Source: Candidatus Spechtbacterales bacterium (GTDB lineage: Bacteria > Patescibacteriota > Minisyncoccia > Spechtbacterales > 2-12-FULL-38-22). From it: DNA of 64,000 bases. The notes beneath the pieces are model-generated. The model saw nothing but the letters and a program-made list of their open reading frames with translations, was not told the DNA's origin and ran no database searches. The stretch is taken from NCBI GenBank assembly GCA_040879145.1, contig JBBDKX010000021.1, forward strand, positions 29,256 to 93,255, given 5' to 3'. The position numbers and the translations under genes were made by a program. This document shows, piece by piece, positions 6,114-24,660 of the stretch (within the stretch, counting starts at the first letter, position 1; each line of letters opens with the position of its first letter).

Positions 6114-6903
6114 GACATTTTTCCCAAGCCAATGTTACCATTGTAAAGCCCCCGGAAACTACCTTTGCGGGGACTGTTTTTGGGGGTTGGCCGTTATGTA
6201 CGAACCGGCATGCCCCCACTGTGAGACACGCCTTCCTTTCGGAGAACTGCCAAAAGAATGCCGGCAGGAAGTAAAGCTGCACCGCGTTTTTACCAGCGGG
6301 CTTTATTCAGACGCAACACTTAATGGTTTGATAAAAGACCTCAAATACAAAGGCGCCTGGCGCCTTGCGGAACCTCTTGCCCGCTTTGCGTATTGGCAAC
6401 TTGACCAAGGTGGCTACGCCGAAGTTATAAAAGAAAAGGTTGATATTATAATTCCCGTACCCCTTCATAAAAATAAATTAAAAAGACGCGGGTTTAACCA
6501 CACTCAAAAGATTGCGGAACATTTATCTGAATTGCTCGATATTCCCTTAGAGATTGACGCTTTAGTTAAGTCAAAAAAAACCGATTCGCAAGTTGAAACC
6601 GGCTCAAGAGAAGAGCGTGAAAAAAACCTTGCCGGCGCGTTCGCTATCACCAATACACAGGTTCAACCTGTGTATAAAACACCCCACACAGGTTCAACCT
6701 GTGTATCTCCTATTTTTAATAAAACCGTGCTTTTAGTTGACGATGTTATTACCACAGGCTCTACACTGCGCGAATGCGCTCTTGCCTTACGCTTTCCATA
6801 TAAATGCGCAAACGCGAAGCATAAAACATGCGAGCTTGGCAGTAGGTGTTATATGAAACAGTACGTGAGGGAGGTATGGGGGCTAACTGTAGCGAAGGAC
6901 TAA
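6091..6903 (+). CDS. comF: ComF family protein (ComFC-like phosphoribosyltransferase domain, N-terminal 4-Cys zinc finger); atypical C-terminus
   Basis: CYHCKAPGNYLCGDC...CPHCETRL zinc finger; PRTase motif VLLVDDVITTGSTL; contains in-frame palindromic repeat insertion. Confidence 0.7.
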   Translation: MLLKQTIETFFPSQCYHCKAPGNYLCGDCFWGLAVMYEPACPHCETRLPFGELPKECRQEVKLHRVFTSGLYSDATLNGLIKDLKYKGAWRLAEPLARFAYWQLDQGGYAEVIKEKVDIIIPVPLHKNKLKRRGFNHTQKIAEHLSELLDIPLEIDALVKSKKTDSQVETGSREEREKNLAGAFAITNTQVQPVYKTPHTGSTCVSPIFNKTVLLVDDVITTGSTLRECALALRFPYKCANAKHKTCELGSRCYMKQYVREVWGLTVAKD

Positions 6904-6953
6904 ATAAAAAGACACTGAATATTCAGCGTCTTTTTATTTAATCCTTACAATAT

Positions 6954-7421
6954 TTATTCTGACTCTTTCATTTCATCAACTCCTCTATTCCTTTTATTAG
7001 CCCTTTCAACCTCCTGCACTTCAGCTGCAAACGGATTCAAGCCTGTTACTTCCTCAGCTGTCGGGCTATCTTCATAATGTGAATAGGCATTAGCGGAGCC
7101 GAATTTATCCTCTGCTGTTTTGCGCGCATCAGAGACCATTTCCGGAAGGATCTTTGCCAGTCCTTCTGCTTGTTCCGGGGTCAAGTCAAAATGTGTTCGC
7201 GTGCCTTCCATAACCTTTCCATCTTCACCGATCACTCCTAAACTCACATCTAAGTGACCGTGCTTGTTGACATCAACATTAACCCTGTAGCCGTCCCTGG
7301 TTATCAACCCTGTCCTTTCGTGGTGAGCGTGAATTTCCGGCTTTATCCATCCGTTTCCAAGTTTTTCTTTAATGCTTTTTATTTTCTTCTCCCCTTGATT
7401 ATCAAATTTTTCTACAGACAT
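6954..7421 (-). CDS. Hypothetical protein
   Basis: 155-aa ORF, no recognisable motif; C9 homopolymer about 40 nt upstream. Confidence 0.4.
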   Translation of the reverse strand: MSVEKFDNQGEKKIKSIKEKLGNGWIKPEIHAHHERTGLITRDGYRVNVDVNKHGHLDVSLGVIGEDGKVMEGTRTHFDLTPEQAEGLAKILPEMVSDARKTAEDKFGSANAYSHYEDSPTAEEVTGLNPFAAEVQEVERANKRNRGVDEMKESE

Positions 7422-7489
7422 ATTTTTATAATTATTAAATTAATTATACTACCCTCATACTACCCCCCCCCTGCTGTTGATGTCAACAT

Positions 7490-7518
7490 AAAAACACGGT
7501 TTTAACCGTGTTTTTATG
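7490..7518 (-). terminator. Rho-independent terminator hairpin (AAAAACACGGTT/AACCGTGTTTTT)
   Basis: Perfect inverted repeat with T-run, directly downstream of the 7549..7872 gene on the minus strand. Confidence 0.55.
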
Positions 7519-7548
7519 TTTTAGTAAATGAGGTGAGATTCAATATTC

Positions 7549-7872
7549 TTATACATTAACCTCAAATCTCCAATCCATTGGAATTAATGTCAAATTAACC
7601 GGATGATTGAACCCGCTTTCTGTTTTCCACTTTGAAATTCCATCTCGAATATCGTTAAATAATCTGTCTCGGTCATCTGTCTTTGACGCACTCATGCGAA
7701 CAAAGACCTCAATCGGGGCAACACCGACCTTAATGCGCGCGCTATTGGCGTATACAAATACATCTTTTATTTGTGTTGCTTCTGAAACTATTTTCTGAAC
7801 CGCATTTGAAACCGCGATGATATCTTTGTCATCAAGCTTTGTGTCGTCATATTCAATGTGAATCATTGGCAT
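7549..7872 (-). CDS. Hypothetical protein; begins Met-Pro (tautomerase-superfamily-like beta-alpha-beta), weak
   Basis: 107 aa MPMIHIEYDD...; Pro1 start and two repeated beta-alpha-beta halves. Confidence 0.4.
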   Translation of the reverse strand: MPMIHIEYDDTKLDDKDIIAVSNAVQKIVSEATQIKDVFVYANSARIKVGVAPIEVFVRMSASKTDDRDRLFNDIRDGISKWKTESGFNHPVNLTLIPMDWRFEVNV

Positions 7873-9938: not shown

Positions 9939-10316
9939 TTAGTCTGAATTTTTTGCTGCAATGACATCTATCTCCAATGTCGCTCCAAGCGGAAGCGATT
10001 GGACACCAACAGCTGTTCTTGCCGGAAGCGGATGTTCAAAGTAATTTCCGTAAACTTTATTTAGCGCAGATAGCTCCCTAAGATCTGTCAGGTATAAATG
10101 AACCCTGATGACATCCGCCAACGTTAGTTCTGCTTCTGCAAGTATCTTTTCAATACGGCGTACCGTAATCTCAAATTTTTCTTCAATTGAGTCGCCGATA
10201 ATATTCCATTCGTCATCGGCATGAATTTGACCAGATATAAATACAAGGCCATTGACTTCAACAGCTCCCGACAACGGGGCTCCTGATTCTTCAGATGATT
10301 GATAAACCTGTTTCAT
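9939..10316 (-). CDS. ridA: RidA/YjgF family reactive-intermediate deaminase
   Basis: 125 aa; YjgF/chorismate-mutase-like pattern (ARTAVGVQSLPLGATLEIDVIA). Confidence 0.85.
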   Translation of the reverse strand: MKQVYQSSEESGAPLSGAVEVNGLVFISGQIHADDEWNIIGDSIEEKFEITVRRIEKILAEAELTLADVIRVHLYLTDLRELSALNKVYGNYFEHPLPARTAVGVQSLPLGATLEIDVIAAKNSD

Positions 10317-10337
10317 GATTTTGTTTAAATCTTATTT

Positions 10338-10729
10338 TGGCGGTGTTTTTTGATTGATGTTCGAACTTTTTTTGAGGAAAACCCCCAATAAGGAAGCCAG
10401 CCCCGCCACGGCTCGGAAACCTCGCCACACCACAGAAAAATACTCTTTGCTCTTTTCATTTTGCGCGCGCCGGATTTCTTTTTCTTCTAATGAAAAGAGT
10501 ATTTTTCTGCGGTGTTCTGCCCTCCAAGTATTCGGGCAGGTGGCGGGGCTGTCCTCAATTTGATTTCGTAAAGAAAAAGCGGAATTCCCCCCAAACCCCC
10601 CTTCCGCTTTTTCTTTTCTCAAACGGAACGGGAACGGAAGCAGTCGGGCAAAAATTCCTTCCCCCCAAACCCCTTCCTTTTTGCCCGCCTGCTTGGGCTT
10701 CGCCCACAAAACTTTTCGGCGGGACGGCG
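10338..10729. repeat. 392-bp inverted repeat, copy 1 (IR-A1); GC-rich, highly self-complementary; partner at 20572-20964
   Basis: Reverse complement matches 20572..20964 with only a few mismatches; ends in TTGGCGGTG. Confidence 0.9.
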
Positions 10730-11467
10730 TTATTTTATCAAATTCCAATTATCGAGGAAATATCCCATTTCGTGATCTTTATTTCCGAGATACACTTTTT
10801 CGTCTCTAAATTTGATATTCACTCGATAGCGTTTTCCATGCCCGACTTCCAAAATGGCTTTTTCGTGGACTTTCTTTTCAACTTCATGAAATGGCAAAAT
10901 CAAAAAATTGTTTTTCTTCTCGCCGTGCAAAACAAAAATATAGTAAATATTTCCGTTGCTGTGGCGTTCAAAAGACACTTTGCGAATATCAAAAACATAA
11001 GTATCAAAACTATTCAAATTTGAGGTTTTAACCTGTATGCCAAACAATTGATTTTCTTTGACCGCCACAATATCCATTCCCACATCTACGCTCATTATAC
11101 TGGCGTTGAAACCACGAAAAAGCAACTCGCTACAAACTAAATACTCGCCAGCTTTTCCGGTAAATCCACCAGCAATAACAATTTTTTCTTCTTCCTCTTT
11201 TTCCGCTTCAATAATCTTTGGCGTTTCTTTGATTTCTTTTTTGTTTGGATTGAGCGCAAAAGTTCCGGGTGCGGTTTTGATAAAATCCGAGCCTTCAACT
11301 TTGGTTTTAATATCTACCGTGATTTGCGCGTTCATTGATGCTTCTGGTGTTGCGCCTTCTGTTTCCAAAATACCAGACTCCAAAGCCAACCGAGTGATTT
11401 CGGTATAATGCAAGGGCGTTTTTGCCTTTTTCAATATTTCAATTGCCGATTGTTTGAATGTGTTCAT
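10730..11467 (-). CDS. HARE-HTH (Mrr_N-like winged helix) + restriction-endonuclease-fold protein; candidate Mrr-like nuclease
   Basis: N-term SAIEILKKAKTPLHYTEITRLALESG...GSDFIKTAPGTFAL (HARE-HTH); middle GEYLVCSELLFRG...DVGMDIVAVKE...IQVKT resembles a PD-(D/E)xK core; translationally coupled to upstream gene. Confidence 0.5.
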   Translation of the reverse strand: MNTFKQSAIEILKKAKTPLHYTEITRLALESGILETEGATPEASMNAQITVDIKTKVEGSDFIKTAPGTFALNPNKKEIKETPKIIEAEKEEEEKIVIAGGFTGKAGEYLVCSELLFRGFNASIMSVDVGMDIVAVKENQLFGIQVKTSNLNSFDTYVFDIRKVSFERHSNGNIYYIFVLHGEKKNNFLILPFHEVEKKVHEKAILEVGHGKRYRVNIKFRDEKVYLGNKDHEMGYFLDNWNLIK

Positions 11468-11468
11468 A

Positions 11469-12755
11469 TTATTCTAAGGTTTTATCGTTATCAGAAAGCT
11501 CTGCAAATTTAGCTTCCATTGTGGGATTTCCGCGCGTTAGTCTTTTGATTGTTAAATCTTCAGCTTTATTATTGGCAAGGCGAAGATTATTTTCAGAAGA
11601 CAAGAGAGCGTCTTTAGTTTTTTGAAGATGATCAATGGTTCTGTCTATTTCTTCAATAGCGGTTTTAAATTTGCGACTAGCAAGATCATAATTTTTGGCA
11701 AAACCTTCTTTAAACTTATTTATATTATCCTCAAAGTTTGTTATATCAACATTTTGGCTTTTAACTAAAGCGAGTTCAGCTTTATATTTCAGTGAGTTCA
11801 TCGCCGCGTTGCGAAGCAAGGTAATAATTGGAATGAAAAATTGTGGACGAACAACATACATTTTGGGGTATTTATGAGCAACATCAACAATTCCGGTGTT
11901 GTATAGCTCATTTTCAGCTTCCAAAAGCGAAACAAGAACGGCATACTCGCATTTCTTTTCAGTACGATCTTTGTCTAGTTCTCGCAAAAAATCGTCGTTT
12001 CGTTTTTTTGTAGCAGTTTCATCTCCCTCATTCTTCATCTCAAACATGATTGAGATAATTTCATTGCCGGTTTCGTCGGTCTCTCGATAAACATAATCAC
12101 CCTTACTTCCTGTTTTTGAATCGTTATCTTTTTCAAAATAAGCGTGTTGAAAAGCAGTCGCGCGAAGTTTGTTAAATTCGGTTTCGCAATGCTGTTCAAG
12201 TGTTTCCCCAACCATTTTGGTTGAGAGCTTGAGCTTCATATCTTTGCGAAGGGCGATCTCATCATCTTTCATCTTTATAATATCGTCTTTGGTTTTAAGA
12301 TCGGCTAAATACTTTTCAAGCAATGATTTTTCCAGCAGTTGTTTTTCGGTTTCTTTGCTTTTTAGGTCATTAGCCAGATCATCACGCTCTTTTTCAATCT
12401 TTTTGACTGCTTCGGTAACACTGAGTTTTTTCTCTACCTCAGATTTATCAATCTTTGATTTCATTTCGGCGAGTTCAGCTTCCTTCTTCGCCAATTGTTC
12501 AGCAAGACTGCGATCCTTCTCGGCTCTTAACTCCACCAGTTCTTTATCTTTCTTCGCGAGTTCGTCTTGTAATGTATTTTTGAGATTGGATTCGGCTAAT
12601 TTAACAGCACTTTCTTTTTCCTTTTCCGCAATATTTAATCGCTCACGCAATTCTTCTTCAAATTTATGATCACGAACCTGTTTGAGGATATCAGCAAAAC
12701 CAGCCTCATCGACTTTGAAAACTTTTTTACAATTTGGACATATAATATCTTGCAT
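11469..12755 (-). CDS. DUF2130-like protein: N-terminal zinc ribbon, long coiled coil, C-terminal globular (RmuC/nuclease-like) domain
   Basis: [20 protein letters not shown], then about 200 aa of Glu/Lys coiled coil, C-terminal [22 protein letters not shown]; 18 nt after hsdR. Confidence 0.5.
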
Positions 12756-12773
12756 ATTGATTATTTTATTTTG

Positions 12774-15700
12774 TTATAACTTACCACCTGAAATATCAAA
12801 GAATCGCTCAAAGAAACTTGTTAGCTTATACAAAACACTTTCTCGTTTCTGTGTTCTTTCACCAGTTGGAGAAAATCGAGACACGGGCGGTAATACTTTT
12901 GATATCGCAGTACCAGTTGTTGCAACGCTTCCGTCTCGAAAAGCATTTTTTATAAATTTATAGGTTGCCTCTTTATCAAGATTTTCATTTTCAATAATTT
13001 TTTCCAATTCCTCAATCTTCTTTTCTTCTACAAATTTTTGCCAATCTTCATCAACAATTGAATGCACATCAAGAGAGGTAATAAATTGATTAATGAGATC
13101 CTTTTTATTTCGGAGTTCAACGCTAGAATCAATCGCTTTATTAATATCAACCAAAAGTTCTTTATTCTTTGTATGATCTTCGTGATATCTTTTTATAAGC
13201 CCTAAAATATAATCAATATTAATCTCGACTTGCTTAATAAGCTCCATTTCAAAGACTAGATCGTCATTAACATTTTCTTGTTCTCCATCAACACCTTTGC
13301 GAAATTCATTATACAAATCAATATACATGCTGTGATAATCCTGCACATCACGCTCGGTCAGAATTTCATTACCTGCGAATTCATCAAAAGTTGTCAGGAT
13401 ATTTCGCACACGCAAAACCGCTCCATATAATTTGATAAAATCTTTTTGGTTCTGTTCTCCAACAATACTTTCACCGACTGGAAATTTCTCTAAAAGTTCG
13501 TCTATTAAACTTTTGTAACCCCGGACTTGTTTTTCGCCGTCTTTATAGCCATTGTAATAATCGGCATAGGCTTTCAGCAGGACAATGCCACATGCTTCTT
13601 TGTCTCCAAAAAGTGCAATAGATTCGTTAGTTGCTTTTTCTAGGTTGCGAAAACAAACAATATTTCCAAAGGTTTTTACACTGTTTAAAATGCGGTTTGT
13701 TCTGGAAAATGCTTGTAACAATCCATGTAAACGAAGATTTTTATCAACCCATAAAGTATTAAGAGTTGTTGCGTCAAATCCGGTCAAAAACATGTTTACC
13801 ACAATCAAAATATCTATTTCTCTTTTTTTAACTCTTTCGCTTACATCTTTATAATAATTTTGAAACTTATCTGACGAAGTATCATAGGAAGTTCCAAACA
13901 TCTTGTTATAATCAACGATAGCTTTTTCCAGAAAATCTCGAGAGCTGACATCAAGTCCGCTCGTATCTTCAGAATTTTCATCAATCATTCCGTCCGCGTC
14001 TTCATCATTGACCCCAAAACTAAAAATCGTAGCTATTTTAAGTCGTTTGTCGCTTGGCTCGTCGGTTAGTTGCTTTTTAAATTCAAGATAATACTTTTTT
14101 GCCACATCAATAGACGAAACGGCAAAAATAGAATTAAATCCCGCCAGTCTGCGATCCTGAATTTTATAAAAACTATTTCGTTTTGTCTTTTGGTCAAAAT
14201 GTTCTCGAATATATCGGACAATATTTTCCAGTCGCTCTGGGGCGCAAAGTATAGCCTCGCGATCAATATCTTTCACTTTTGCATCTTCAATATTTTCCGC
14301 TTCACGAACTGTAGAAACATAATCAACCTTAAACGGCAAAACATTTTTGTCAGCAATTGCATTGACGATTGTGTAAGTGTGCAATTTTTCTCCAAAAGCT
14401 TGTTCGGTAGTTTTGAAATCAATGCGACCGCCAGATGAAGAATTTACCGCAAAAATTGGCGTGCCGGTAAAGCCAAAAAGATGATAATTGTTAAATGCTT
14501 TGACGATACTCGCATGCATATCGCCAAATTGTGAACGATGGCACTCGTCAAAAATCAAAACAATATGTCCGTCAAAAATAGTGTGTCCAGAGTTTCGATT
14601 GATAAATCTGTCTAATTTTTGAATCGTTGTAATAATTATCCGAGAATTAGAATTTTCTAATTGTTTTTTCAAAATAGCGGTACTGGTATTGCTATTCGCC
14701 GCCCCTTTTTCAAATTTGTCATACTCTCGCATTGTTTGATAGTCCAAATCCTTACGATCAACTACAAATAAAACTTTATCTACATAAGGTAATTTGCTGA
14801 CGAGTTGAGCGGTTTTAAAACTGGTCAAAGTCTTTCCCGAACCTGTCGTATGCCAAATATAACCGCCTGCTTCTATTGTCCCTAGTTTTTTATAATTTGT
14901 ACTAACCTCAACTCTGCTCAATATTCGTTCGGTAGCAACTATTTGATATGGTCGCATCGCTAAAAGCTGTTTATCGGTAGTAAACACACAATATTTAGTC
15001 AAAATATTCAAAATCGTATGCTTGGCAAAAAATGTCTTGGCAAAATCCATCAGCTCGGTAATTGGTTTATTTGTCGCGTCTGCCCACCAGCTCGTAAATT
15101 CAAAACTATTGCTCGATCTTTTTCCTTTTTTGATTTTGCCTTCGCTTGCTTCTTTTATGTGCTGTGATCTGGTTGTATTGCTGTAATATTTGGTATGCGT
15201 TCCATTGGAAATAATAAAAAGTTGTACATATTCAAAAAGTCCGCTGGATGCCCAAAAACTTTCTCGTTGGTAACGATTGATTTGATTAAATGCTTCTTGG
15301 ATGGCGACACCACGGCGTTTTAGCTCGATATGAACAAGAGGAAGTCCGTTTACCAGAACTGTCACATCATAACGATTCACTCGCTGTCCGTCCTCGGTCG
15401 CATATTGATTGATCACCTGCAAGCTGTTGTTGTGAATATTTTTCTTGTCTATTAGATCAATATTCTTAAAAGTGCCGTCATCTCGGTCTAATATTTTTGT
15501 GCTATCTTCTTGAATAGTGGCGGTTTTTTCTTCAATGCTTTGATTTGGATTGGCAATAATACTGACAAAAAACTTTCCCCATTCGGTATCGGTAAAAGTA
15601 AAATTATTTAGTTTTTCCAACTGTTGACGCAGATTAAGAACAAGCTCATTTTCAGAAGTGATTTTCAAATATTCGTATGCTTGCGTTTCTAATTGTTTTA

Positions 15701-15827
15701 TAAAAACACTCTCAAGATCGGCTTCACTTTGGTAGTGAGCCACTCTTTTGGTATCTGGAACATACTCGGCAACAACCGTGCTTTGAGTGCTTTCGGCGAC
15801 TAAGTTGTATTTATTCTTATTTGGCAT
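12774..15827 (-). CDS. hsdR: Type I restriction enzyme R subunit (HsdR)
   Basis: 1017 aa; HsdR_N, helicase motif I HTTGSGKTLT, motif II FDECHRSQ, C-terminal HsdR_C; overlaps hsdS by 11 nt. Confidence 0.9.
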   Translation of the reverse strand: MPNKNKYNLVAESTQSTVVAEYVPDTKRVAHYQSEADLESVFIKQLETQAYEYLKITSENELVLNLRQQLEKLNNFTFTDTEWGKFFVSIIANPNQSIEEKTATIQEDSTKILDRDDGTFKNIDLIDKKNIHNNSLQVINQYATEDGQRVNRYDVTVLVNGLPLVHIELKRRGVAIQEAFNQINRYQRESFWASSGLFEYVQLFIISNGTHTKYYSNTTRSQHIKEASEGKIKKGKRSSNSFEFTSWWADATNKPITELMDFAKTFFAKHTILNILTKYCVFTTDKQLLAMRPYQIVATERILSRVEVSTNYKKLGTIEAGGYIWHTTGSGKTLTSFKTAQLVSKLPYVDKVLFVVDRKDLDYQTMREYDKFEKGAANSNTSTAILKKQLENSNSRIIITTIQKLDRFINRNSGHTIFDGHIVLIFDECHRSQFGDMHASIVKAFNNYHLFGFTGTPIFAVNSSSGGRIDFKTTEQAFGEKLHTYTIVNAIADKNVLPFKVDYVSTVREAENIEDAKVKDIDREAILCAPERLENIVRYIREHFDQKTKRNSFYKIQDRRLAGFNSIFAVSSIDVAKKYYLEFKKQLTDEPSDKRLKIATIFSFGVNDEDADGMIDENSEDTSGLDVSSRDFLEKAIVDYNKMFGTSYDTSSDKFQNYYKDVSERVKKREIDILIVVNMFLTGFDATTLNTLWVDKNLRLHGLLQAFSRTNRILNSVKTFGNIVCFRNLEKATNESIALFGDKEACGIVLLKAYADYYNGYKDGEKQVRGYKSLIDELLEKFPVGESIVGEQNQKDFIKLYGAVLRVRNILTTFDEFAGNEILTERDVQDYHSMYIDLYNEFRKGVDGEQENVNDDLVFEMELIKQVEINIDYILGLIKRYHEDHTKNKELLVDINKAIDSSVELRNKKDLINQFITSLDVHSIVDEDWQKFVEEKKIEELEKIIENENLDKEATYKFIKNAFRDGSVATTGTAISKVLPPVSRFSPTGERTQKRESVLYKLTSFFERFFDISGGKL

Positions 15828-16998
15828 ATTCTTTTTCTTTGAAAGTTAGAAGTTTCCCTCGGTAGTATTCATATTGTGATCGACGAGCTTTGAGTTCAGC
15901 CGGTAAGCCAATTGAAATATCATTTACAAGGGCATCAAATTTGTCGAGGATTGAAACAATTCGTTTTTGTTCGGGTAAGAGTGGAATAGGAATTTTAAAC
16001 TCTTTTACCTTGGCATCTGAAATTGATGGATATGCAGAACCTTCTTGCTTCTGTTCAACATAATCATTAAAACGACTAGAAGCAATATTGAAATATATCC
16101 ATTTTGGCAGAACTTTTTTTTCATCTGCTCTTAAAACACAATATCCAGTACTTGCAATCTGCCCGTCATAAACATCATCAATTAGAGTATATCGTCGTAG
16201 GGTTGGACGAGTGGTTGCAAAAATCACATCATCTTTTTGTATAAGTTTTTGCGCTCTACTAGGTGCGTTATTTGAATTAATTTCAACAGTTTCATTTATA
16301 CTATGATCATCACGGCTAACAGATGTTAAATCAATATATTTATAAATTTTGTCTATTTCTTTCCATTTTATATTTTGAGTTGAGAATGTTACTTCCCCCA
16401 AAGTTTTATATTCTACATCTTTTATATTCAACAAATCATCTCGATAATGCTCATACTGCTTCTTCCTCGCCTCCAGCTCTGCCTCCAGCTCTGCCTCCAG
16501 CTCTGTAAAACTATCAAGAATTTTGACGATTTCTTGTTGGACTGGGAGGGGTGGGATGGGGATTTTGATTTTTTCCATTACATTACTCATTATCTTGGGA
16601 TTTCCCATTCCAGCACTAACATATTTTTTAGATAATGTCGCCAAGATATATGAAAGGAACTTCATGTTCACATTCCTATCTTTAGCTTTCAAAAGTCCGC
16701 AAACATTCGTAATACTAAATTTTCCGTTACGATAGAAAATTGAACCAGCATATGCTCCGTCAGTTGTCCAAGTTATATACTCACCGTCATAGTCATAAGT
16801 ATTGATGCGACCAAAAACACCGTTGTCCGCTGTTTGAGATGAATACACTGGATACTCGCCGGCATTTTCATTCAAATAATCTTTTGACATTACTCTCCCG
16901 CGATTGATTTGGCAGATTTCACCAATACTCTTTAACTCAATCCCATTCGGGCAAAGTTCAGCAATTAGTTTTTCGATTTTAGATTGATTAGTTATCAT
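15817..16998 (-). CDS. hsdS: Type I restriction-modification specificity subunit (HsdS), two target-recognition domains
   Basis: 393 aa; conserved central region LPPLPVQQEIVKILDSFTELEAELEAELEARKKQYEHYRDDLL and C-terminal LPEQKRIVSILDKFDALV...LKARRSQYEYYRGKLL. Confidence 0.85.
   Translation of the reverse strand: MITNQSKIEKLIAELCPNGIELKSIGEICQINRGRVMSKDYLNENAGEYPVYSSQTADNGVFGRINTYDYDGEYITWTTDGAYAGSIFYRNGKFSITNVCGLLKAKDRNVNMKFLSYILATLSKKYVSAGMGNPKIMSNVMEKIKIPIPPLPVQQEIVKILDSFTELEAELEAELEARKKQYEHYRDDLLNIKDVEYKTLGEVTFSTQNIKWKEIDKIYKYIDLTSVSRDDHSINETVEINSNNAPSRAQKLIQKDDVIFATTRPTLRRYTLIDDVYDGQIASTGYCVLRADEKKVLPKWIYFNIASSRFNDYVEQKQEGSAYPSISDAKVKEFKIPIPLLPEQKRIVSILDKFDALVNDISIGLPAELKARRSQYEYYRGKLLTFKEKEYAK
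16468..16503. repeat. 12-bp tandem repeat x3 (CGCCTCCAGCTC / TGCCTCCAGCTC x2) encoding (ELEA)n in hsdS central conserved region
   Basis: Directly visible in sequence; in-frame 4-aa repeat ELEAELEAELEA. Confidence 0.9.
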
Positions 16999-18593
16999 AA
17001 TTTTTTAAGTGAATCGACATCGCTTTCTATATATCCTCTTAAGATATCAATTGACTCTTTCAGTTTTTCATCAAAATCACCCTTCTTGTTTGCCGGATAA
17101 TGGATACAATTTCTAATAAATGTTGGCAATGTTACTTTCGCATTTTTTACTTTAGGTTTACTTGTATCAGTACAGTCTTTTTCAGCTTTTTTTATTTGTT
17201 TGAGATATTGTTCATCAAAAGCATTTATACCTATACTTTCAATATGCTTTGATTCATCTTTTTCTTTAGAGTTCTTGTCATTAACAAACCAATCTCTTAA
17301 TTTATCGTAAAGTTCGTTGTGGTATTGTTCATCTAAAATGTCGAAAACTTCATATGACACTTCTGCATAGCTTGTTTGTTTTTTACCTAATTCATCAACC
17401 TCTCGTACATTTGTATATTCTTCATTATTTTGATTTTTTATCTTTTCAACTCGATAATATCTACCCAAATCTTTTTTATCAATCATGTAGTTCGAGTGTG
17501 TGGCGAATAAAACAATATTACTTTTGCTATTGTTTGTAATCTCTACAAGCTGAGCAAGTAAATGCTCTTGTGCTTTTGGATGTAAATGTGTTTCAGGCTC
17601 ATCAAGTAAAATAATTGTATTTTGCAGTTCCTCATTTTTATTTTCTGCAACGACAGTTAATAAAAAAGAAATGAATTGCTTAAAACCATCACTCCGCATG
17701 TCTGATGTCTGAGCTTTTCCTTCTGTATCAATATCTTTAACATGAAAATTAATATGCCCATCCATTATCTTAAATGTAATTTCTATAGGATGTTTGGGCC
17801 AAGCTGTATTAATATGCTCTGTTACATTTTTGCCAAGTCTCTTTTCAAGATATTCACAAGTTGGAGTATCAGCTAAAGCATCCTCTAGTTCCTGTTTTAT
17901 TTTATCTTGAGAAATTGAAGATAGTAAAAAACAGTTTCTCAGAGGTATTGAGGTGTTTGTGTCATTAATAAACTGTTCAATATTTATCGGTTTTGAAATT
18001 AGATAACGATCTTCTGCAGTCCAGAAAATTGTTTTATGTACATTTTCCTCTATAAAGTTATCAAATTCATCTTTGTTATTGATTTCAATTTCTTGATCTC
18101 CTTCAAAAACTGAAGTTGAATATTCAGGATCAGCACTAGCCTTAGAAAAACTAATAACATAATCTGCAATCAAAGAGCTCAAAATTTTATTCTTTGGTTT
18201 TTTAACTTCCTTAATTTTACTATCTTCAACATCTTGCGTCTGCCCACCTTCTATAGCAGAAACTTCTTTTTCTAAATTTGGGACTGGATTATCAACAGAA
18301 TCTTCTTTATTTAAAATCTCGTACAATTCCTTATCCTCTTTCGAAGTAATACTATATCGATAAGTAATTTTTATTTCTTCTTTTAATCTAAAGTCTTTTA
18401 ATAATGGAAGTTTTGTACCAGAGTCGTCAACTAATCCATCTTTTAAGCCAATCGCTTTTAATATAGATGATTTACCAGCTTCATTTATTCCTATTAATCC
18501 GTAAGTGAAACTATTGTCATCTCTTTTGATTATGTTAAAAGGAGTTTCTTTTATACTTCTATAATTTTCAATTGTAATTTTTGTGATTTTCAT
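16995..18593 (-). CDS. ABC/SMC-like AAA ATPase (OLD/AAA_15-like head) with about 130-aa C-terminal domain of unknown function, embedded between hsdM and hsdS
   Basis: Start reassigned to MKITKITIENYRSIK (ATG 18593, 4 nt after hsdM stop); Walker A GINEAGKSSILKAIGL; Walker B ILLDEPETHLHP; ATHSNYMID. Confidence 0.7.
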   Translation of the reverse strand: MKITKITIENYRSIKETPFNIIKRDDNSFTYGLIGINEAGKSSILKAIGLKDGLVDDSGTKLPLLKDFRLKEEIKITYRYSITSKEDKELYEILNKEDSVDNPVPNLEKEVSAIEGGQTQDVEDSKIKEVKKPKNKILSSLIADYVISFSKASADPEYSTSVFEGDQEIEINNKDEFDNFIEENVHKTIFWTAEDRYLISKPINIEQFINDTNTSIPLRNCFLLSSISQDKIKQELEDALADTPTCEYLEKRLGKNVTEHINTAWPKHPIEITFKIMDGHINFHVKDIDTEGKAQTSDMRSDGFKQFISFLLTVVAENKNEELQNTIILLDEPETHLHPKAQEHLLAQLVEITNNSKSNIVLFATHSNYMIDKKDLGRYYRVEKIKNQNNEEYTNVREVDELGKKQTSYAEVSYEVFDILDEQYHNELYDKLRDWFVNDKNSKEKDESKHIESIGINAFDEQYLKQIKKAEKDCTDTSKPKVKNAKVTLPTFIRNCIHYPANKKGDFDEKLKESIDILRGYIESDVDSLKKL

Positions 18594-18597
18594 AAAT

Positions 18598-20178
18598 TTA
18601 TCGTTTAGTATTTTCAATATCCGCCACAATCTCATCAATCGCAGTACGCAGTTCATTTTGTCTTGACACGATCTTGGCAATTTTTTCGTTGAGTTCCGTT
18701 ATATTCACCACCTCGCGTGTATCTTCCGCCATCACATAACTTGAAACCGCAATATTGTAATCATTCTCACCAATAGTTTTATTATCAACTAACTTTGCAA
18801 AATACTCTGCATCTTGTCGTAGCGTAAAAGCATCAAGAATTTTTTTGCGATTTCCTTCGCTCAATTTATTTTTATTTCCGCCCCGTACAAATTCAGCCGA
18901 GGCATCAATAAATAAAGTTTTGTTGTCTTTTTTGCTTTTTTTCAAAACAATAATGCAAGTAGCAATAGTCACCCCAAAAAATAGATCGGGGGGAAGCTGG
19001 ATAACCGTATCAATATAGTTATTATCAACCAAATACTTGCGGATTTTTTGTTCAGCTCCGCCACGATAGAGAACTCCCGGAAATTCAACAATCGCCGCCG
19101 TTCCGCTGGTTGAAAGCCACGCAAGCATGTGCATGGTAAAAGCGAGATCAGCTTTGCTCTTTGGCGCCAACACCCCAGCCGGCGAAAAACGCGGATCATT
19201 AATCATCAAAGGATTGGCATCGCCGTCCCACTTTATCGAATATGGCGGATTAGAAACAATGGCGTCAAACGGTTCATCATCCCAATGTTTTGGATCAGTG
19301 AGTGTGTCGCCGTGAGCAATATCAAAATGATTGTAATTAATATCATGCAAAAACATGTTGATACGGCAAAGATTGTAGGTAGTGAGATTTATTTCTTGAC
19401 CAAAAAATCCCTGCCTGACATTTTCCTTGCCAAGCACTTTTGCAAATTTCAAAAGAAGCGAACCAGATCCACAGGCTGGATCGTAGACTTTATTAACTTC
19501 TGTTTTGCCTGCTGTTGCGATTTCCGCCAAAAGCTCGCTCACTTCTTGAGGTGTATAATATTCTCCGCCAGATTTACCAGCATTAGATGCGAACATCGCC
19601 ATTAAATATTCGTAAGCATCACCAAAAGCGTCGATTGTATTATCTCCATAATTACCAAGACGAAGATCGCCGATGGCTTCTAAAAGTTTTACGAGTTTTT
19701 GATTTCTTTTCTCTACAGTTCCACCGAGCTTATTTGAATTCACATCTAAATCGTCAAATAATCCTTTCAAGTCATCTTCACTATCAAATCCTTTCGCAGA
19801 ATTTTCGATATTATCAAAAACATTTGAAAGTGTTTCGTTAAGTTTTGCATCGTTGCGAGCATTTTTACGAACATTTACAAAAAGAGCACTTGGTAAAATA
19901 TAAAAACCTTTTTCTTTTATAGTGTCGGCTCTTCCAAATTCAGCTTCTTTATCAGAAAGTGAAGCATAATCAAAATCTTTGTTGCCGGTGCGTCGCTCAT
20001 CGGCATTGATGTAATTTGTAAGATTTTCGCTGATGAAACGATAAAAAAGTATTCCAAGAACATATTGCTTGAAATCCCACCCATCAACGGCACCTCGCAA
20101 ATCATTGGCAATCTGCCAAATAGCACGATGAAGTTCGGCTCGTTCTTGTTCTTTGGTTGTATTTAGATTATTTGCCAT
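18598..20178 (-). CDS. hsdM: Type I restriction-modification DNA methyltransferase (HsdM), N6-adenine
   Basis: 526 aa; HsdM_N; SAM motif YDPACGSGSLL; catalytic SNPPYSIKW. Confidence 0.9.
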   Translation of the reverse strand: MANNLNTTKEQERAELHRAIWQIANDLRGAVDGWDFKQYVLGILFYRFISENLTNYINADERRTGNKDFDYASLSDKEAEFGRADTIKEKGFYILPSALFVNVRKNARNDAKLNETLSNVFDNIENSAKGFDSEDDLKGLFDDLDVNSNKLGGTVEKRNQKLVKLLEAIGDLRLGNYGDNTIDAFGDAYEYLMAMFASNAGKSGGEYYTPQEVSELLAEIATAGKTEVNKVYDPACGSGSLLLKFAKVLGKENVRQGFFGQEINLTTYNLCRINMFLHDINYNHFDIAHGDTLTDPKHWDDEPFDAIVSNPPYSIKWDGDANPLMINDPRFSPAGVLAPKSKADLAFTMHMLAWLSTSGTAAIVEFPGVLYRGGAEQKIRKYLVDNNYIDTVIQLPPDLFFGVTIATCIIVLKKSKKDNKTLFIDASAEFVRGGNKNKLSEGNRKKILDAFTLRQDAEYFAKLVDNKTIGENDYNIAVSSYVMAEDTREVVNITELNEKIAKIVSRQNELRTAIDEIVADIENTKR

Positions 20179-20182
20179 AATT

Positions 20183-20392
20183 TTATTTCATTAAATCATC
20201 AAGCGAAACGCCGAGAGCGTCCGCAATTTTTTTGACTGTATCAATAGTAGGGTTGGGAGTAGAGCCAGCTTCAATTTTGGCAATCGTATGAAAAGCCAAA
20301 TCTGCTTTTTTTGAAAGCACATCTTGAGAAATACCGAGCTTGTTTCGGTATTTCTTTATATTCTCGCCAATTGTGGATTTTTCGTTTGACAT
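20183..20392 (-). CDS. XRE-family HTH transcriptional regulator (candidate C-protein/controller of the R-M operon)
   Basis: 69 aa; IKKYRNKLGISQDVLSKKADLAFHTIAKIEAG HTH_XRE; first gene of operon, 4 nt before hsdM. Confidence 0.8.
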   Translation of the reverse strand: MSNEKSTIGENIKKYRNKLGISQDVLSKKADLAFHTIAKIEAGSTPNPTIDTVKKIADALGVSLDDLMK

Positions 20393-20397
20393 ATTCG

Positions 20398-20451
20398 TAT
20401 AGTTTTACTATTATAGTTGTATAGTATTAAAAACATCACTTATTTATAGTT
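20398..20451 (-). promoter_or_regulatory. Putative promoter/operator of XRE-hsdM operon: TATAAT -10 (minus strand, 20410-20415) and 4 copies of ACTATA(A)
   Basis: Minus-strand read: ...ACTATACAACTATAATAGTAAAACTATACGAAT-ATG; repeated half-sites resemble C-box operators. Confidence 0.3.
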
Positions 20452-20571
20452 AGTATATGAAATTTTTAGCATTTAGTCAAACAAAATTAGGGAGTTCTTT
20501 TGACATAACGCGCGCACGGGTGGGTGGGGCAAGCGTTATCCCTCTTTTATCCTCTCTTTTGTTTTCTGTCC

Positions 20572-20964
20572 CGCCGTCCCGCCGAAAAGTTTTGGGGGCG
20601 AAGCCCAAGCAGGCGGGCAAAAAGGAAGGGGGTTGGGGGGAAGGAATTTTTGCCCGACTGCTTCCGTTCCCGTTCCGTTTGAGAAAAGAAAAAGCGGAAG
20701 GGGGGTTTGGGGGGAATTCCGCTTTTTCTTTACGAAATCAAATTGAGGACAGCCCCGCCACCTGCCCGAATACTTGGAGGGCAGAACACCGCAGAAAAAT
20801 ACTCTTTTCATTAGAAGAAAAAGAAATCCGGCGCGCGCAAAATGAAAAGAGCAAAGAGTATTTTTCTGTGGTGTGGCGAGGTTTCCGAGCCGTGGCGGGG
20901 CTGGCTTCCTTATTGGGGGTTTTCCTCAAAAAAAGTTCGAACATCAATCAAAAAACACCGCCAA
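20572..20964. repeat. 392-bp inverted repeat, copy 2 (IR-A2)
   Basis: Near-identical reverse complement of 10338..10729; ends ...CACCGCCAA, overlapping the start of IR-B1. Confidence 0.9.
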
Positions 20965-21091
20965 TTTTCACTTTTTGTGAAATCGTAAGGAATTGCCTCG
21001 GCGCAAAGCGCCTCGGCATGGTATTTTTCCGCAATTTTGAAGGCATTTTTGAAATCCAAAAACAAAGAGCGGTCGGCAATGCGGAAGTTCG
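20958..21091. repeat. About 134-bp inverted repeat IR-B1 (inverted copy of the recombinase 3' coding end plus tRNA-Ser-proximal sequence)
   Basis: Reverse complement identical to 22575..22709. Confidence 0.85.
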
Positions 21092-21205
21092 CAGAGCGAA
21101 GCTCTGGCAAAATGAAATTTTGCAAACCAATCTTTTTTCTTTCGCTTTCAGCGAAAGGTTGAGCGTATTTTTCTTTGATTGCCCAAAAACTAATTTCAAA
21201 ACAAT

Positions 21206-22819
21206 ATGGACAACATAAATTTACAAACCAAAAAGTTTTTCCTCTATGCCCGTAAATCCACGGACGAACCCGAAAGGCAGGTTTTGAGTATTGAAGCGCA
21301 AATTTTCGAGCTGAAAGAATACGCCCGAAAAGAAAATTTGCAGATCGTCCGTGAATTTGTGGAAAGCAAAACCGCCAAAGAACCCGGGCGAGAAATTTTT
21401 AATGAAATGGTGGCGGGCATAGAGAAAAACGAAGCCGAGGGAATTTTAGCGTGGCACCCTGACCGTCTTGCTCGCAATTCCATAGACGGCGGACGAATAA
21501 TCTATCTTGTAGATACTGGAAAGATCACCACGCTAAAATTTCCAACTTTTTGGTTTGATTCAACTCCACAGGGAAAATTTATGTTGTCCATTGCTTTTGG
21601 GCAATCAAAATACTATGTGGATAATCTTTCGGAAAATATAAAGAGGGGTATTCGCCAGAAATTGCGAAATGGAATTTGGCCCGCTTGGGCGCCACTTGGC
21701 TATATAAACGATAAAAACGCTCGCTGTATCGCTGTGGACAAAGAAAAGGCGAAGTATATCAAGCGGGCTTTTGAAATGTATTCAACTGGCGAATATCCCC
21801 TCGCTCAAATCCGAAAGATTATCAATTCCTTGGGCTTGGTTGGCAAGAAAGGCAAAATGCTTTCCGTCTCAAATTATCAATATATGCTCAAGAACAAAAT
21901 ATATTTTGGCATGATTGAATATAACGGCGAATTGTATGACGGAAAGCATGAACCGATTATCACAAAGAAACTTTTTGATTCTGTTCAAGAAGTGATGATG
22001 AAAAAATCCAAACCGAAAACGCCAAAATTGAAACCGTATGTGTATAGAGGATTTTTCCGTTGCGGAGAGTGTGGCTGTTTCATAACTACCGAAACGCAGA
22101 AAGGTCATAACTACCTGCGATGCACTAAACGGAAAAATCCTTGCACGCAAAAATATGTTCGCGAGGAAATCATCACTTCTCAAATAAAAGAGGAAATCAA
22201 AAAAGTTTCTTTGTCTTCCGCTTGGGCAAACGCTTCAATCAATTATTTTGAAAATGAAAAATTGAAAACCGCCCAAGCGGAAAGCTCTTTTGCCCAAAAG
22301 TCGCGAGATGAGCTTGTGGAAACAGAAACAAAACTTGATCGTTTGCTTGATTTACATTTGGAAGGCAGTTTGTCGCAAACGGAATATGCTACTAAAAAGC
22401 ACAAGCTCATTCTCGCAAAAAAGGATTTGGAAGAAAAAATCTCGTCTTTTGGGCGAAAGAGCAATAATCGGTTCGAACTTGCCATAAACTTCATAAAAGA
22501 AGCCAACCAAGCCGAAAAATACGCTCAACAAGAAAATCCCGAAAGGATTCGGGATTTTCTCAAAAAGATTGGTTCGAACTTCCGCATTGCCGACCGCTCT
22601 TTGTTTTTGGATTTCAAAAATGCCTTCAAAATTGCGGAAAAATACCATGCCGAGGCGCTTTGCGCCGAGGCAATTCCTTACGATTTCACAAAAAGTGAAA
22701 ATTGGCGGAGGGGGTGGGACTCGAACCCACATAGGCTTGCGCCTGCCAGTTTTCAAGACTGGTTCCTTAGCCAATTCGGAGCACCCCTCCTTATTTATTT
22801 TTTCTTCTTTTTACCCTGA
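21206..22819 (+). CDS. Large serine recombinase (resolvase N-domain + recombinase domain + zinc ribbon + coiled coil)
   Basis: YARKSTDEPERQ catalytic Ser motif; PLGYIND recombinase domain; CGECGCFITTETQKGHNYLRC zinc ribbon; ORF as predicted runs through IR-B2 and antisense across tRNA-Ser, so true stop is uncertain. Confidence 0.8.
   Translation: MDNINLQTKKFFLYARKSTDEPERQVLSIEAQIFELKEYARKENLQIVREFVESKTAKEPGREIFNEMVAGIEKNEAEGILAWHPDRLARNSIDGGRIIYLVDTGKITTLKFPTFWFDSTPQGKFMLSIAFGQSKYYVDNLSENIKRGIRQKLRNGIWPAWAPLGYINDKNARCIAVDKEKAKYIKRAFEMYSTGEYPLAQIRKIINSLGLVGKKGKMLSVSNYQYMLKNKIYFGMIEYNGELYDGKHEPIITKKLFDSVQEVMMKKSKPKTPKLKPYVYRGFFRCGECGCFITTETQKGHNYLRCTKRKNPCTQKYVREEIITSQIKEEIKKVSLSSAWANASINYFENEKLKTAQAESSFAQKSRDELVETETKLDRLLDLHLEGSLSQTEYATKKHKLILAKKDLEEKISSFGRKSNNRFELAINFIKEANQAEKYAQQENPERIRDFLKKIGSNFRIADRSLFLDFKNAFKIAEKYHAEALCAEAIPYDFTKSENWRRGWDSNPHRLAPASFQDWFLSQFGAPLLIYFFFFLP
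22575..22709. repeat. IR-B2 (partner of 20958-21091), ending in the tRNA-Ser 3' terminus
   Basis: Sequence identity with reverse complement of IR-B1. Confidence 0.85.
22703..22790 (-). tRNA. tRNA-Ser (anticodon UGA), long variable arm, CCA encoded
   Basis: Minus-strand GGAGGGGTGCTCCGAATTGGCTAAGGAACCAGTCTTGAAAACTGGCAGGCGCAAGCCTATGTGGGTTCGAGTCCCACCCCCTCCGCCA; cloverleaf and anticodon loop CTTGAAA. Confidence 0.85.
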
Positions 22820-23500: not shown

Positions 23501-23538
23501 ATAAAATATTAGCTTGTTCTGTTTAATTATTGCTGATG

Positions 23539-23623
23539 CGGAGGAGGTGGGATTCGAACCCACGGGCCGCTAACGCGGCACGGTTTAGCAAACCGTCCCA
23601 TTTGACCACTCTGGCACTCCTCC
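23539..23623 (-). tRNA. tRNA-Ser (anticodon GCU), long variable arm
   Basis: Minus strand GGAGGAGTGCCAGAGTGGTCAAATGGGACGGTTTGCTAAACCGTGCCGCGTTAGCGGCCCGTGGGTTCGAATCCCACCTCCTCCG. Confidence 0.8.
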
Positions 23624-23643: not shown

Positions 23644-24660
23644 TTAATTGTTGTATTTTTTCAAATGTTTAGGATTATTACTGCTTATTGTATCAAAATA
23701 AATTTTCATGTCATGCTTACTATCCAAACGCACATCCCGCCCTGCCAGTCTTGGATTTAAGCCAGTATTGCGCATTATTTTGAAAACTGAATTTCTAAGG
23801 GGTTCTGAATAAGATGTAAATGACAGTTTTTTATAAGAGTACTCCTTACTCTTAACTCTATATCTATGAATAAAAATAGAGCCATCTGTGTCAACCAAGC
23901 CCCGCAGGCACGCAATTTCGAAATCTTTATCACCCATTATCCATTTCGGTATATCTACCTGCTTTTTTATTTTATTACCTCTTACTAAACCCAGATTATT
24001 TTCACAAAACCTTACTAACTCTACTCGAGATACCGCATAAATACACGCATTAGCATCTTTTCGTTCGTGAATTCCCACATATACTCCAAACAGATTCTCC
24101 ATTAAATTTTTTACATATACGCCATATTTTTTATCATCTTTACTATGAAGTGTAACTGTAACCTGTTGATTAGATATACCCCCATCCCCTAACATTATTC
24201 CAACAAACTCTGCAAGGCTTTTTGAGTATTTAGGTTTTTTAATTTTTATTGGAGCACTTGTAAGCCCGCTTGACTTAAAACGCCCTTCTTTCTCCCACCA
24301 TTCATACCATTTCTGTTTTCTGTATTTCTCATTTTTTGGCATTTCCCCATACTTACTAATAACAGCCTCCCACCCCAACTTTGCGCCTTCATGCGCATAC
24401 CAATATTTATCTAACATCGTTATATCTTTAGGCCAAGATTGTTTAGATTTCTCACATAAAATTTTCAACGATTTTTCATTTATTAAAAATTTTTCACGTC
24501 GCCAATCTCTAACAGTACGCTCAGACCTACCACACCACTTTGCCATTTGTTCAACTGAAAACTCTTTTTCTATATTTTCTATAAAAGCTTTTTGTTTTCC
24601 TTTTGGAAATCTTATTCTGCTATCTTTAATCTTTTCAGCCATATCTCCATAATACACCAT
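23644..24660 (-). CDS. Free-standing LAGLIDADG homing endonuclease (two motifs) with N-terminal HTH-like region
   Basis: LAEFVGIMLGDGGIS and LRGLVDTDGSIF LAGLIDADG motifs; 338 aa; 21 nt upstream of tRNA-Ser(GCT). Confidence 0.8.
   Translation of the reverse strand: MVYYGDMAEKIKDSRIRFPKGKQKAFIENIEKEFSVEQMAKWCGRSERTVRDWRREKFLINEKSLKILCEKSKQSWPKDITMLDKYWYAHEGAKLGWEAVISKYGEMPKNEKYRKQKWYEWWEKEGRFKSSGLTSAPIKIKKPKYSKSLAEFVGIMLGDGGISNQQVTVTLHSKDDKKYGVYVKNLMENLFGVYVGIHERKDANACIYAVSRVELVRFCENNLGLVRGNKIKKQVDIPKWIMGDKDFEIACLRGLVDTDGSIFIHRYRVKSKEYSYKKLSFTSYSEPLRNSVFKIMRNTGLNPRLAGRDVRLDSKHDMKIYFDTISSNNPKHLKKYNN

Follow-up and report, generated by a model that had tools for sequence, protein, structure and literature searches.

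Why should a recombinase gene read on through an entire tRNA gene on the opposite strand, and why should an inverted copy of its own 3' end lie immediately upstream? Both features occur in a 64,000-nt stretch of DNA from a Candidatus Spechtbacterales bacterium (the window, in which all positions are numbered). Here an open reading frame (ORF) of 537 aa at 21206-22819 on the plus strand, with Resolvase, Recombinase and Zn_ribbon_recom domains (Pfam), lies between inverted repeats and reads antisense through the whole of tRNA-Ser(UGA), its stop falling 27 nt past the tRNA 5' end. We propose that this region is the integrase module of a 12.4-kb element of a large serine recombinase (LSR), seated in tRNA-Ser(UGA) and carrying a duplicated, inverted attP; we assign this explanation a probability of about 0.72. 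The account draws on a scan of species-representative genomes, which returned at least 517 loci with relatives of the window recombinase (80 of them were kept for comparison of the layout; L numbers below denote loci of relatives), and on the 120 best database relatives of the protein, 60-93% identical to it.

Integrase, repeats and attachment sites

The features on which the argument turns are as follows, with P and P' for the halves contributed by the element and B and B' for those of the host.

21206-22708, plus strand: LSR, residues 1-501 common to homologues (Pfam, invariant columns, AlphaFold model, Foldseek)
22709-22819, plus strand: non-native 36-codon extension, RGWDSNPH...FLP and stop, an antisense translation of the tRNA
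22703-22790, minus strand: tRNA-Ser(UGA), integration target and B' half (ARAGORN; Rfam 50.2 bits)
22703-22708, plus strand: attR core TGGCGG, P joined to B', common to the W-R codons of int and the 3' CCGCCA of the tRNA
22575-22708, plus strand: right arm of the first inverted repeat (IR1), P half of attR, encoding SNFRIADR...SENWR
21092-22574, plus strand: integrase segment between the arms, 1483 nt, with a spacer relic, the presumed int promoter and 5' untranslated region, and int codons 1-456
21092-21106 and 21107-21123, plus strand: a pair of small GAA-loop hairpins, side by side at the inner end of the left arm, with stems that covary between loci
20958-21091, minus strand: left arm of IR1, a copy of integrase codons 457-501
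20933-20985, minus strand: internal attP, intact, P joined to P', inverted relative to attR, core CCGCCA at 20958-20963
20572-20964, minus strand: inner copy of the second inverted repeat (IR2), with the native tail from 20957 down to 20910, then noncoding DNA toward a helix-turn-helix (HTH) gene
10337-10729, plus strand: outer copy of IR2, with the core, native tail codons at 10344-10391 (CFLIDVRTFFEENPQ and stop) and about 340 nt of hairpin-rich noncoding DNA
10337-10343, plus strand: attL core TTGGCGG, where the host B half joins the element P' half

The sequences 20958-21091 and 22575-22708 are exact reverse complements of each other (134 nt, 100%, by repeat search and direct string comparison), and an inverted pair of this length is expected by chance about 4e-72 times in 64 kb. 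An earlier note on this DNA had recognized the repeat as exact; its right-hand end at 22709 is one base too far, the true end being 22708. The right arm reaches 6 nt into the tRNA-Ser gene. A second inverted repeat, which that note had overlooked, adjoins the first and pairs 10337-10729 with 20572-20964, identical at 391 of 393 nt. From 10337 onward the plus strand reads TTGGCGG followed directly by TGTTTTTTGATTGATGTTCGAAC. As attL, the internal attP and attR can all be placed around one core, the 134-nt repeat is best read as the pair of P arms and the 393-nt repeat as the pair of P' arms.

As the junctions show, the predicted crossover (within the CGG of TGGCGG) falls inside the int ORF, after codon 501. 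With a crossover at the W-R codons, the displaced tail is expected at the far end of the element, and it was found there, at 10337. The ORF crosses the tRNA because integration swapped the last 15 codons of int for host DNA. The tRNA-Ser(UGA) gene is intact, with its 3' CCA and trailer provided by the element. On the other side, the start codon of a host RidA/L-PSP gene lies at 10316, 20 nt from the attL core.

At 14 loci (the window and 13 with a far-end copy of the tail and noncoding DNA), B and P are identical at the core over 3-7 nt only, which fits a serine recombinase and not a tyrosine integrase. The motif TTCGAAC lies 16 nt past the core in the P' half of the internal attP, and TCGAAC lies 11 nt past it in tRNA-Ser(UGA); the same placement of TTCGAA (+16 nt in P', +11 nt in B') recurs at 34 of 38 evaluable loci, in all three clades of relatives. 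In serine integrases the motif of the zinc-ribbon domain is found 5 bp nearer to the middle of attB than of attP (PMC3783163), and the 5-nt shift seen here matches that of known LSR sites. From these comparisons, an element of about 12.4 kb (roughly 10337-22708), putatively inserted by the LSR in the 3' end of tRNA-Ser(UGA), is well supported.

The protein itself has the expected composition. PF00239 matches with E = 2.3e-20, and PF07508 and PF13408 match as well. The nucleophile is S18, within an R16-K17-S18 motif that is invariant in 36 homologues, and the zinc-ribbon cysteines C286, C289, C306 and C313 are likewise invariant among homologues. The AlphaFold model has long helices at 338-385 and 391-441, a coiled coil inserted in the zinc-ribbon domain. 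A Foldseek search with this model gave full-length solved serine integrases as top matches (E down to 4e-19), among them Bxb1, PhiC31 and Listeria LI; a sequence search of the PDB with the window recombinase matched N-terminal domains alone. LSRs catalyse recombination of attP with attB, and their excision reaction needs a directionality factor. By domains and modelled fold the window enzyme qualifies as a large serine integrase, and attP × attB catalysis is predicted for it. An exact look-up of the 537-aa ORF matched no protein record.

All of the 120 homologues are collinear as far as the W-R pair, after which they fall into two tail classes. The first (69/120) comprises antisense-tRNA peptides (R-G-R-D-S-N-P-R...), variable in sequence and length. 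The second (about 20/120) is a conserved peptide, C-F-L-(D/I)-(E/D)-V-R-T-F-F-(E/D)-x-N-P. Extensions of homologues are unrelated to one another, 8-80 aa long and set by which tRNA is occupied. Both classes are interleaved within single clusters of at least 90% identity, and one protein of the tail class is 99.8% identical over 480 residues to one of the tRNA class. Given the conserved tail class in homologues, the tail in the left copy of the window, CFLIDVRTFFEENPQ, would be the native C-terminus. Its codons vary synonymously between loci (ACT/ACA/ACG/ACC, TTT/TTC, AAC-CCC/AAT-CCT), which argues that the tail is under selection at the protein level. In the AlphaFold model of a class-B homologue (P0004, 93% identical; mean pLDDT 82) the tail forms the final helix, 498-513, and the arm-encoded part is modelled as a β-hairpin and helix.

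These comparisons bear out the reading of the ORF across the whole tRNA-Ser that the earlier note had reported, and sequencing error is not its cause. The frameshift that it suspected near 22560 is absent, the homologues being collinear up to W500-R501, and none of them stops before 22560. Its remark that a recombinase stop embedded in a tRNA is unusual holds in general; within this family an antisense-tRNA tail is the rule. Throughout the protein databases (P0001-P0186), gene callers run through the tRNA and leave spurious variable C-termini in most deposited sequences.

The left copy contains a minus-strand ORF at 20910-21125 (71 aa) with the peptide NFRIADR...SENWR, as the earlier note had described, followed by CFLIDVRTFFEENPQ and a stop. 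We rejected it as an expressed protein, as it lacks an ATG and a conserved start. The duplicated stretch was once longer, a point that had been overlooked. Read on its minus strand, the 114-nt spacer (21092-21205) is a degenerate extension of the duplicated integrase 3' end, with a relic of int codons ~423-456 at 21124-21205; past the hairpins the homology to int resumes in decayed form (AACCAATCTTTTT, TTGAGCGTATTTTTC), so the original duplication spanned at least 80 codons. Only the outer 134 nt remain identical. The hairpins (21092-21123; predicted folding energy -12.8 kcal/mol) are missing from L037, where the arm extends to 148 nt; by this comparison the hairpin insertion is what sets the sharp 134-nt boundary of the left arm. 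The hairpins stand between the left arm and the integrase promoter region, and they may be a terminator or an insulator against read-through from the tRNA.

The length of the arms is maintained at 133-134 nt even in Elusimicrobia relatives at 61% identity. Within one locus the two arms have a median identity of 99.3% (perfect in 15 of 32 loci), whereas between loci the median is 84.7%, against 93% for the adjacent body of int. Arms that are alike within loci and divergent between them have evolved in concert, and the pattern indicates recombination or gene conversion between arms as the simplest route.

The layout and its isomers in relatives

The window is not a singular case. Among the 80 loci, and besides the window, 37 have the order inverted tail, inverted arm, int, arm and tRNA with both junctions visible, and in a further 22 the arm is joined to a tRNA while a contig end truncates the left side. 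The layout is kept across three clades down to 61% protein identity, in contigs from different assemblers. The targets are tRNA-Ser(GCU, CGA, UGA, GGA) and, in one clade, tRNA-Gln. Wherever the right junction of a classified int copy is visible, it is a tRNA 3' end or a native or tail-like peptide, with the exception of L084; L005, L017, L067 and L079, labelled "other" by the classifying script, have tail variants or antisense-tRNA peptides there; L068 is unclear.

Two further arrangements were seen in relatives. In L017 two integrase cassettes, 425-1927 and 6268-7638 (92% and 53% identical to the window protein), flank one cargo segment, each with its own arms. Relics of the P arm stand beside tRNA-Ser genes in L024 (2014-2103, about 90 nt) and L087 (11570-11606, about 30 nt), and they look like scars of earlier occupancy.

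Several relatives are isomers of the window arrangement. In L042 a plus-strand tRNA-Ser is followed by the inverted arm, hairpins, spacer and int, so that int reads away from the tRNA, opposite to the window. L001 has this order with a diverged arm and continues into the native tail, about 440 nt of noncoding DNA and the HTH gene, the same order as on the inner IR2 side of the window. L085 has an intact attP on either side of int, with non-identical arms, and is what the free form should look like. In L030 the cassette lies between identical inverted copies of tRNA-Ser(GGA) (5669-5758 and 7498-7587), the arms being two alleles; recombination of each attP site with a tRNA target would fit this arrangement. 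Contig L036 is exactly the 1483-nt inter-arm segment.

One int allele (1624 nt, 100%; L095-L098) was recovered from four different samples of the same two field sites, with a tRNA-Ser(CGA) junction in two samples and with the tail and noncoding DNA in the two others. The tail-side sequence differs from the internal copy at 5 of 236 positions, as expected of an attL copy, and the arm mismatches lie too far inward to tell whether crossing-over took place at the core or within the outer 96 nt. The cargo can be flipped as well. An identical integrase on 17 contigs (L087, L088-L094) accompanies a 9.3-kb cargo (MmeI-like methylase, PLD-SNF2, AAA_13, HTH) that occurs in both orientations between samples; the flip point is inside a 29-nt identical stretch, CAAAAATTTTTCAGAAGGCGACGGGCTA (L087 2113-2168 / 11499-11554), shorter than the assembly k-mer. 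In L043 and L045 the cargo is flipped too. On these alignments, two predicted invertible segments, int (1.5 kb) and cargo (9.8 kb), are well supported.

Mechanism, rival explanations and a possible switch

If the sites act as predicted, excision by attL × attR would release a circle in which a pair of inverted repeats, each about 520 bp long and with an attP of its own, would part the 1.5-kb int segment from the 9.8-kb cargo segment. Integration could then proceed via either attP, and each segment could flip. A flip of the int segment would rejoin the gene to its native tail, and int would then read away from the tRNA rather than across it in antisense. The most likely route of flipping is homologous recombination or gene conversion between the arms, a process that would also keep the arms identical. 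The native-tail form is probably the active or excision-competent one, and the tRNA-fused form, predominant in genomes, would be a settled or parked state. On this account flipping would be frequent and the native tail needed for activity.

A number of observations weigh against parts of this reading. No empty attB was found for the window host, the metagenome relatives of RidA being at most 78% identical and the tRNA-Ser neighbourhood not kept; the left boundary at 10337 is drawn by junction logic only. Genomes seldom have int in the opposite orientation (2 clear cases, compared with about 60 of the usual one). Neither a circular contig nor terminal overlaps marking a circle were found in the contigs checked, and the short native-tail contigs could be walks through the assembly graph where the arm exceeds the k-mer. 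A recombination directionality factor was not recognized in the element. Some loci have arms of different alleles, 75-89% identical (L016 at 75%), so the arms can differ, and function may not depend on the 134-nt identity. Finally, known LSRs do not recombine attP with attR (PMC3783163), so flipping driven by the enzyme would be without precedent and homologous recombination between the arms is favoured.

The rival that survives best, though we think it improbable, is a phase switch of the Hin/Gin type, in which the recombinase would invert its own gene at short sites at the repeat ends and so toggle the expression of a neighbour. The earlier note had compared the geometry to Hin-type segments, and the comparison holds in so far as the segment appears invertible: the recombinase gene lies between inverted repeats, the gene is turned the other way round in L042 and L001, and after an inversion int would be transcribed toward the HTH/restriction-modification operon instead of the tRNA. 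The enzyme and its sites are of another kind. The protein is built as a 500-aa LSR (a core of 501 aa), whereas invertases of this type have ~190 aa and a C-terminal HTH, and the arms are not hix-like. The two sites share the P half only, their outer halves being tRNA in one and native tail in the other, as in attR and attP. Moreover, the orientation is strongly skewed, and attL at 10337 marks an integrated element.

Slightly less probable still is a non-functional scar, that is, an old partial inverted duplication of the int 3' end merely carried along, which the earlier note had also entertained. The decayed continuation of the duplicated 3' end in the spacer 21092-21205 would suit such an origin, as would the diverged arms of some loci (75% in L016, none detectable in L043). 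However, the layout persists in three clades down to 61% identity, the arms are near-identical within most loci and evolve in concert, and the tail ORF, under protein-level selection, is intact beside a complete P' half site, where a neutral scar would have decayed as the spacer has. Nor does the 134-nt repeat belong to a dispersed repeat family, as that note had allowed.

We consider it very unlikely that the module is an autonomous unit of 1751 bp, similar to an insertion sequence (IS), with the 134-nt repeats as its termini, the LSR as its transposase and a position between the tRNA and an unrelated island. Perfect terminal inverted repeats do bound a unit with a single recombinase gene, database contigs of about 2 kb are numerous, and L030 has the unit alone between two tRNA-Ser copies. 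Yet the arms are in all cases bordered on the outside by a tRNA 3' end or by the conserved tail with noncoding DNA, the tail co-evolves with int as coding sequence, and the small HTH and noncoding module always accompany the unit. A unit at many unrelated targets, the mark of IS607/TnpX-like transposons, was not seen among the classified int copies. That assembly produced the structure, whether as a hairpin chimera or by taking an arbitrary route across the repeat, is scarcely credible: at 134 nt the arm is indeed longer than the usual k-mers, contigs frequently stop at the arms and L036 coincides with the inter-arm segment, but the structure occurs in dozens of assemblies from different pipelines, and loci whose arms differ by a few bases or by allele leave no ambiguity.

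Within the preferred reading, an LSR element with a duplicated inverted attP, it is a separate and more doubtful proposition that the duplication is a programmed device, a heritable stochastic switch of mobility with a live internal attP; we regard this as possible and hold it tentatively. Integration via the attP inside int would swap the C-terminal helix and park the element, and a 1.5-kb flip would restore the native protein and re-license excision. The same flip would turn int from antisense through the tRNA to co-oriented with read-through from the tRNA. Recombination of the internal attP with a second tRNA-Ser, 830 bp away, could lead to cassette exchange or chromosomal inversion, as L030 suggests. 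The tRNA in question is an unoccupied tRNA-Ser(GCU) at 23538-23623, whose 3' half matches that of the occupied one at 92% identity over 26 nt; it is a potential second attB for the internal attP. Between the tRNA genes lies a free-standing 338-aa ORF with LAGLIDADG homing-endonuclease domains (23644-24660, minus strand).

Cargo, hosts and comparison with known systems

The remainder of the element is cargo, which by gene content is a complete type I restriction-modification system with accessory genes (Pfam assignments throughout):

10730-20571, minus strand: cargo segment, potentially invertible, with type I restriction-modification and accessory genes
10730-11467, minus strand: HARE-HTH/PD-(D/E)XK
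11469-12755, minus strand: DUF2130
12774-15827, minus strand: HsdR
15817-16998, minus strand: HsdS
16995-18680, minus strand: AAA_15/AAA_21 ATPase
18598-20178, minus strand: HsdM
20183-20392, minus strand: HTH_3, 69 aa, which leads the cargo
20452-20480: promoter-like site for the HTH gene (promoter scan)

The cargo is lower in G+C than its flanks (0.30-0.32 at 17-19 kb, against about 0.40 for the window). In 12 of 14 related elements the cargo likewise begins with a small HTH gene, whose conserved product of 64-71 aa is a candidate directionality factor. Pfam searches found no Phage_integrase domain in the called ORFs of the element and no replication genes in its cargo. The cargo of relatives is chiefly defence (NgoPII with a C5 methylase, GmrSD/Mrr, type IIG, MmeI-like, SMODS) and includes ResIII-helicase/N6_N4-methyltransferase, possibly type III. 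The noncoding stretch of about 0.5 kb past the native tail (20393-20909, 10392-10729) is a modular array of hairpins with C-rich loops on the cargo-sense strand (e.g., GGCGGGCAAAAATTCCTTCCCCCCAACCCCCTTCCTTTTTGCCCGCC), its modules being gained and lost between loci. Rfam at gathering thresholds found tRNAs alone, and when the noncoding region and spacer were searched under permissive settings, no credible match emerged.

The hosts of the 80 loci are mostly Patescibacteria, with Elusimicrobia as well. Integrases about 90% identical (L003-L082) are distributed over bins labelled as many Patescibacteria classes and as Gammaproteobacteria, Verrucomicrobiota, Dehalococcoidia and Pacearchaeota; either the transfer has been very wide or short mobile contigs were binned wrongly. 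Deposited phages and plasmids gave no relative above 29% protein identity, and a search of IMG/VR for the free form gave a single distant phage-like match. The IMG/VR contig L084 is phage-like, with tail and lysis-like ORFs and an LSR 56% identical to the window protein; the integrase family may have a phage origin.

Parts of this arrangement have counterparts elsewhere. Integration-dependent immunity, reportedly described by Broussard et al. in 2013 for mycobacteriophages such as BPs, is said to place attP inside a coding 3' end. As in the window element, integration removes C-terminal codons there, and the integrated and free forms make different proteins; the gene, however, is a repressor, the integrase is a tyrosine recombinase and there is no inverted spare 3' end. 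Hin, Gin and Pin share with the element a serine recombinase gene with inverted repeats and both orientations in nature, whereas they are small invertases with 26-bp sites and an enhancer, and their segment is not an att-bounded mobile element. The yeast 2-micron plasmid undergoes a Flp/FRT flip-flop between inverted repeats. It resembles the circle deduced here (not recovered) in its two long inverted repeats with recombinase sites and two flippable unique segments, and differs in its tyrosine enzyme, identical sites, autonomous replication and flipping for copy-number amplification.

Islander-type islands and tycheposons are likewise small islands at tRNA 3' ends with defence or niche cargo, and a minority of tycheposon-like elements carry an LSR (bioRxiv 10.1101/2020.12.28.424599). 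They mostly have tyrosine integrases and long tRNA-derived direct repeats, and an inverted duplication of attP has not been reported for them; in contrast, the far end of the window element shares TTGGCGG alone with the tRNA end and has no long tRNA direct repeat of the Islander kind. The closest likeness in enzymology is to the serine integrases of phages and integrative conjugative elements (Listeria A118/LI, Bxb1, PhiC31, TP901-1), which have the same domains, fold, short core identity and attL/attR split of the host site, and an outer motif 5 bp closer to the centre in attB. The window protein is, however, at most 29% identical to any deposited phage or plasmid LSR, and its family targets the tRNA 3' end, has attP inside its own last codons and carries a second, inverted attP. 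According to a 2020 survey, serine integrases (S-Ints) were not known to target tRNA genes (PMC7192596). An earlier account of the inverted dual-attP layout was not found in the literature, and the element family, which is widespread, has apparently not been described before.

The finding extends serine integrases to tRNA-gene targets, with an attachment site lodged in the integrase's own coding end. For annotation, it means that many database recombinases have variable "RGRDSNPR..." C-termini that stem from read-through across a tRNA in antisense and are not protein sequence; for engineering, it offers predicted attP/attB pairs for a new integrase clade. The family appears to move restriction-modification and other defence genes among Patescibacteria (Candidate Phyla Radiation, CPR) and Elusimicrobia, whose mobile DNA is poorly known. 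Its conserved layout of two inverted attP sites would make two invertible segments, and may be a self-contained control of mobility.

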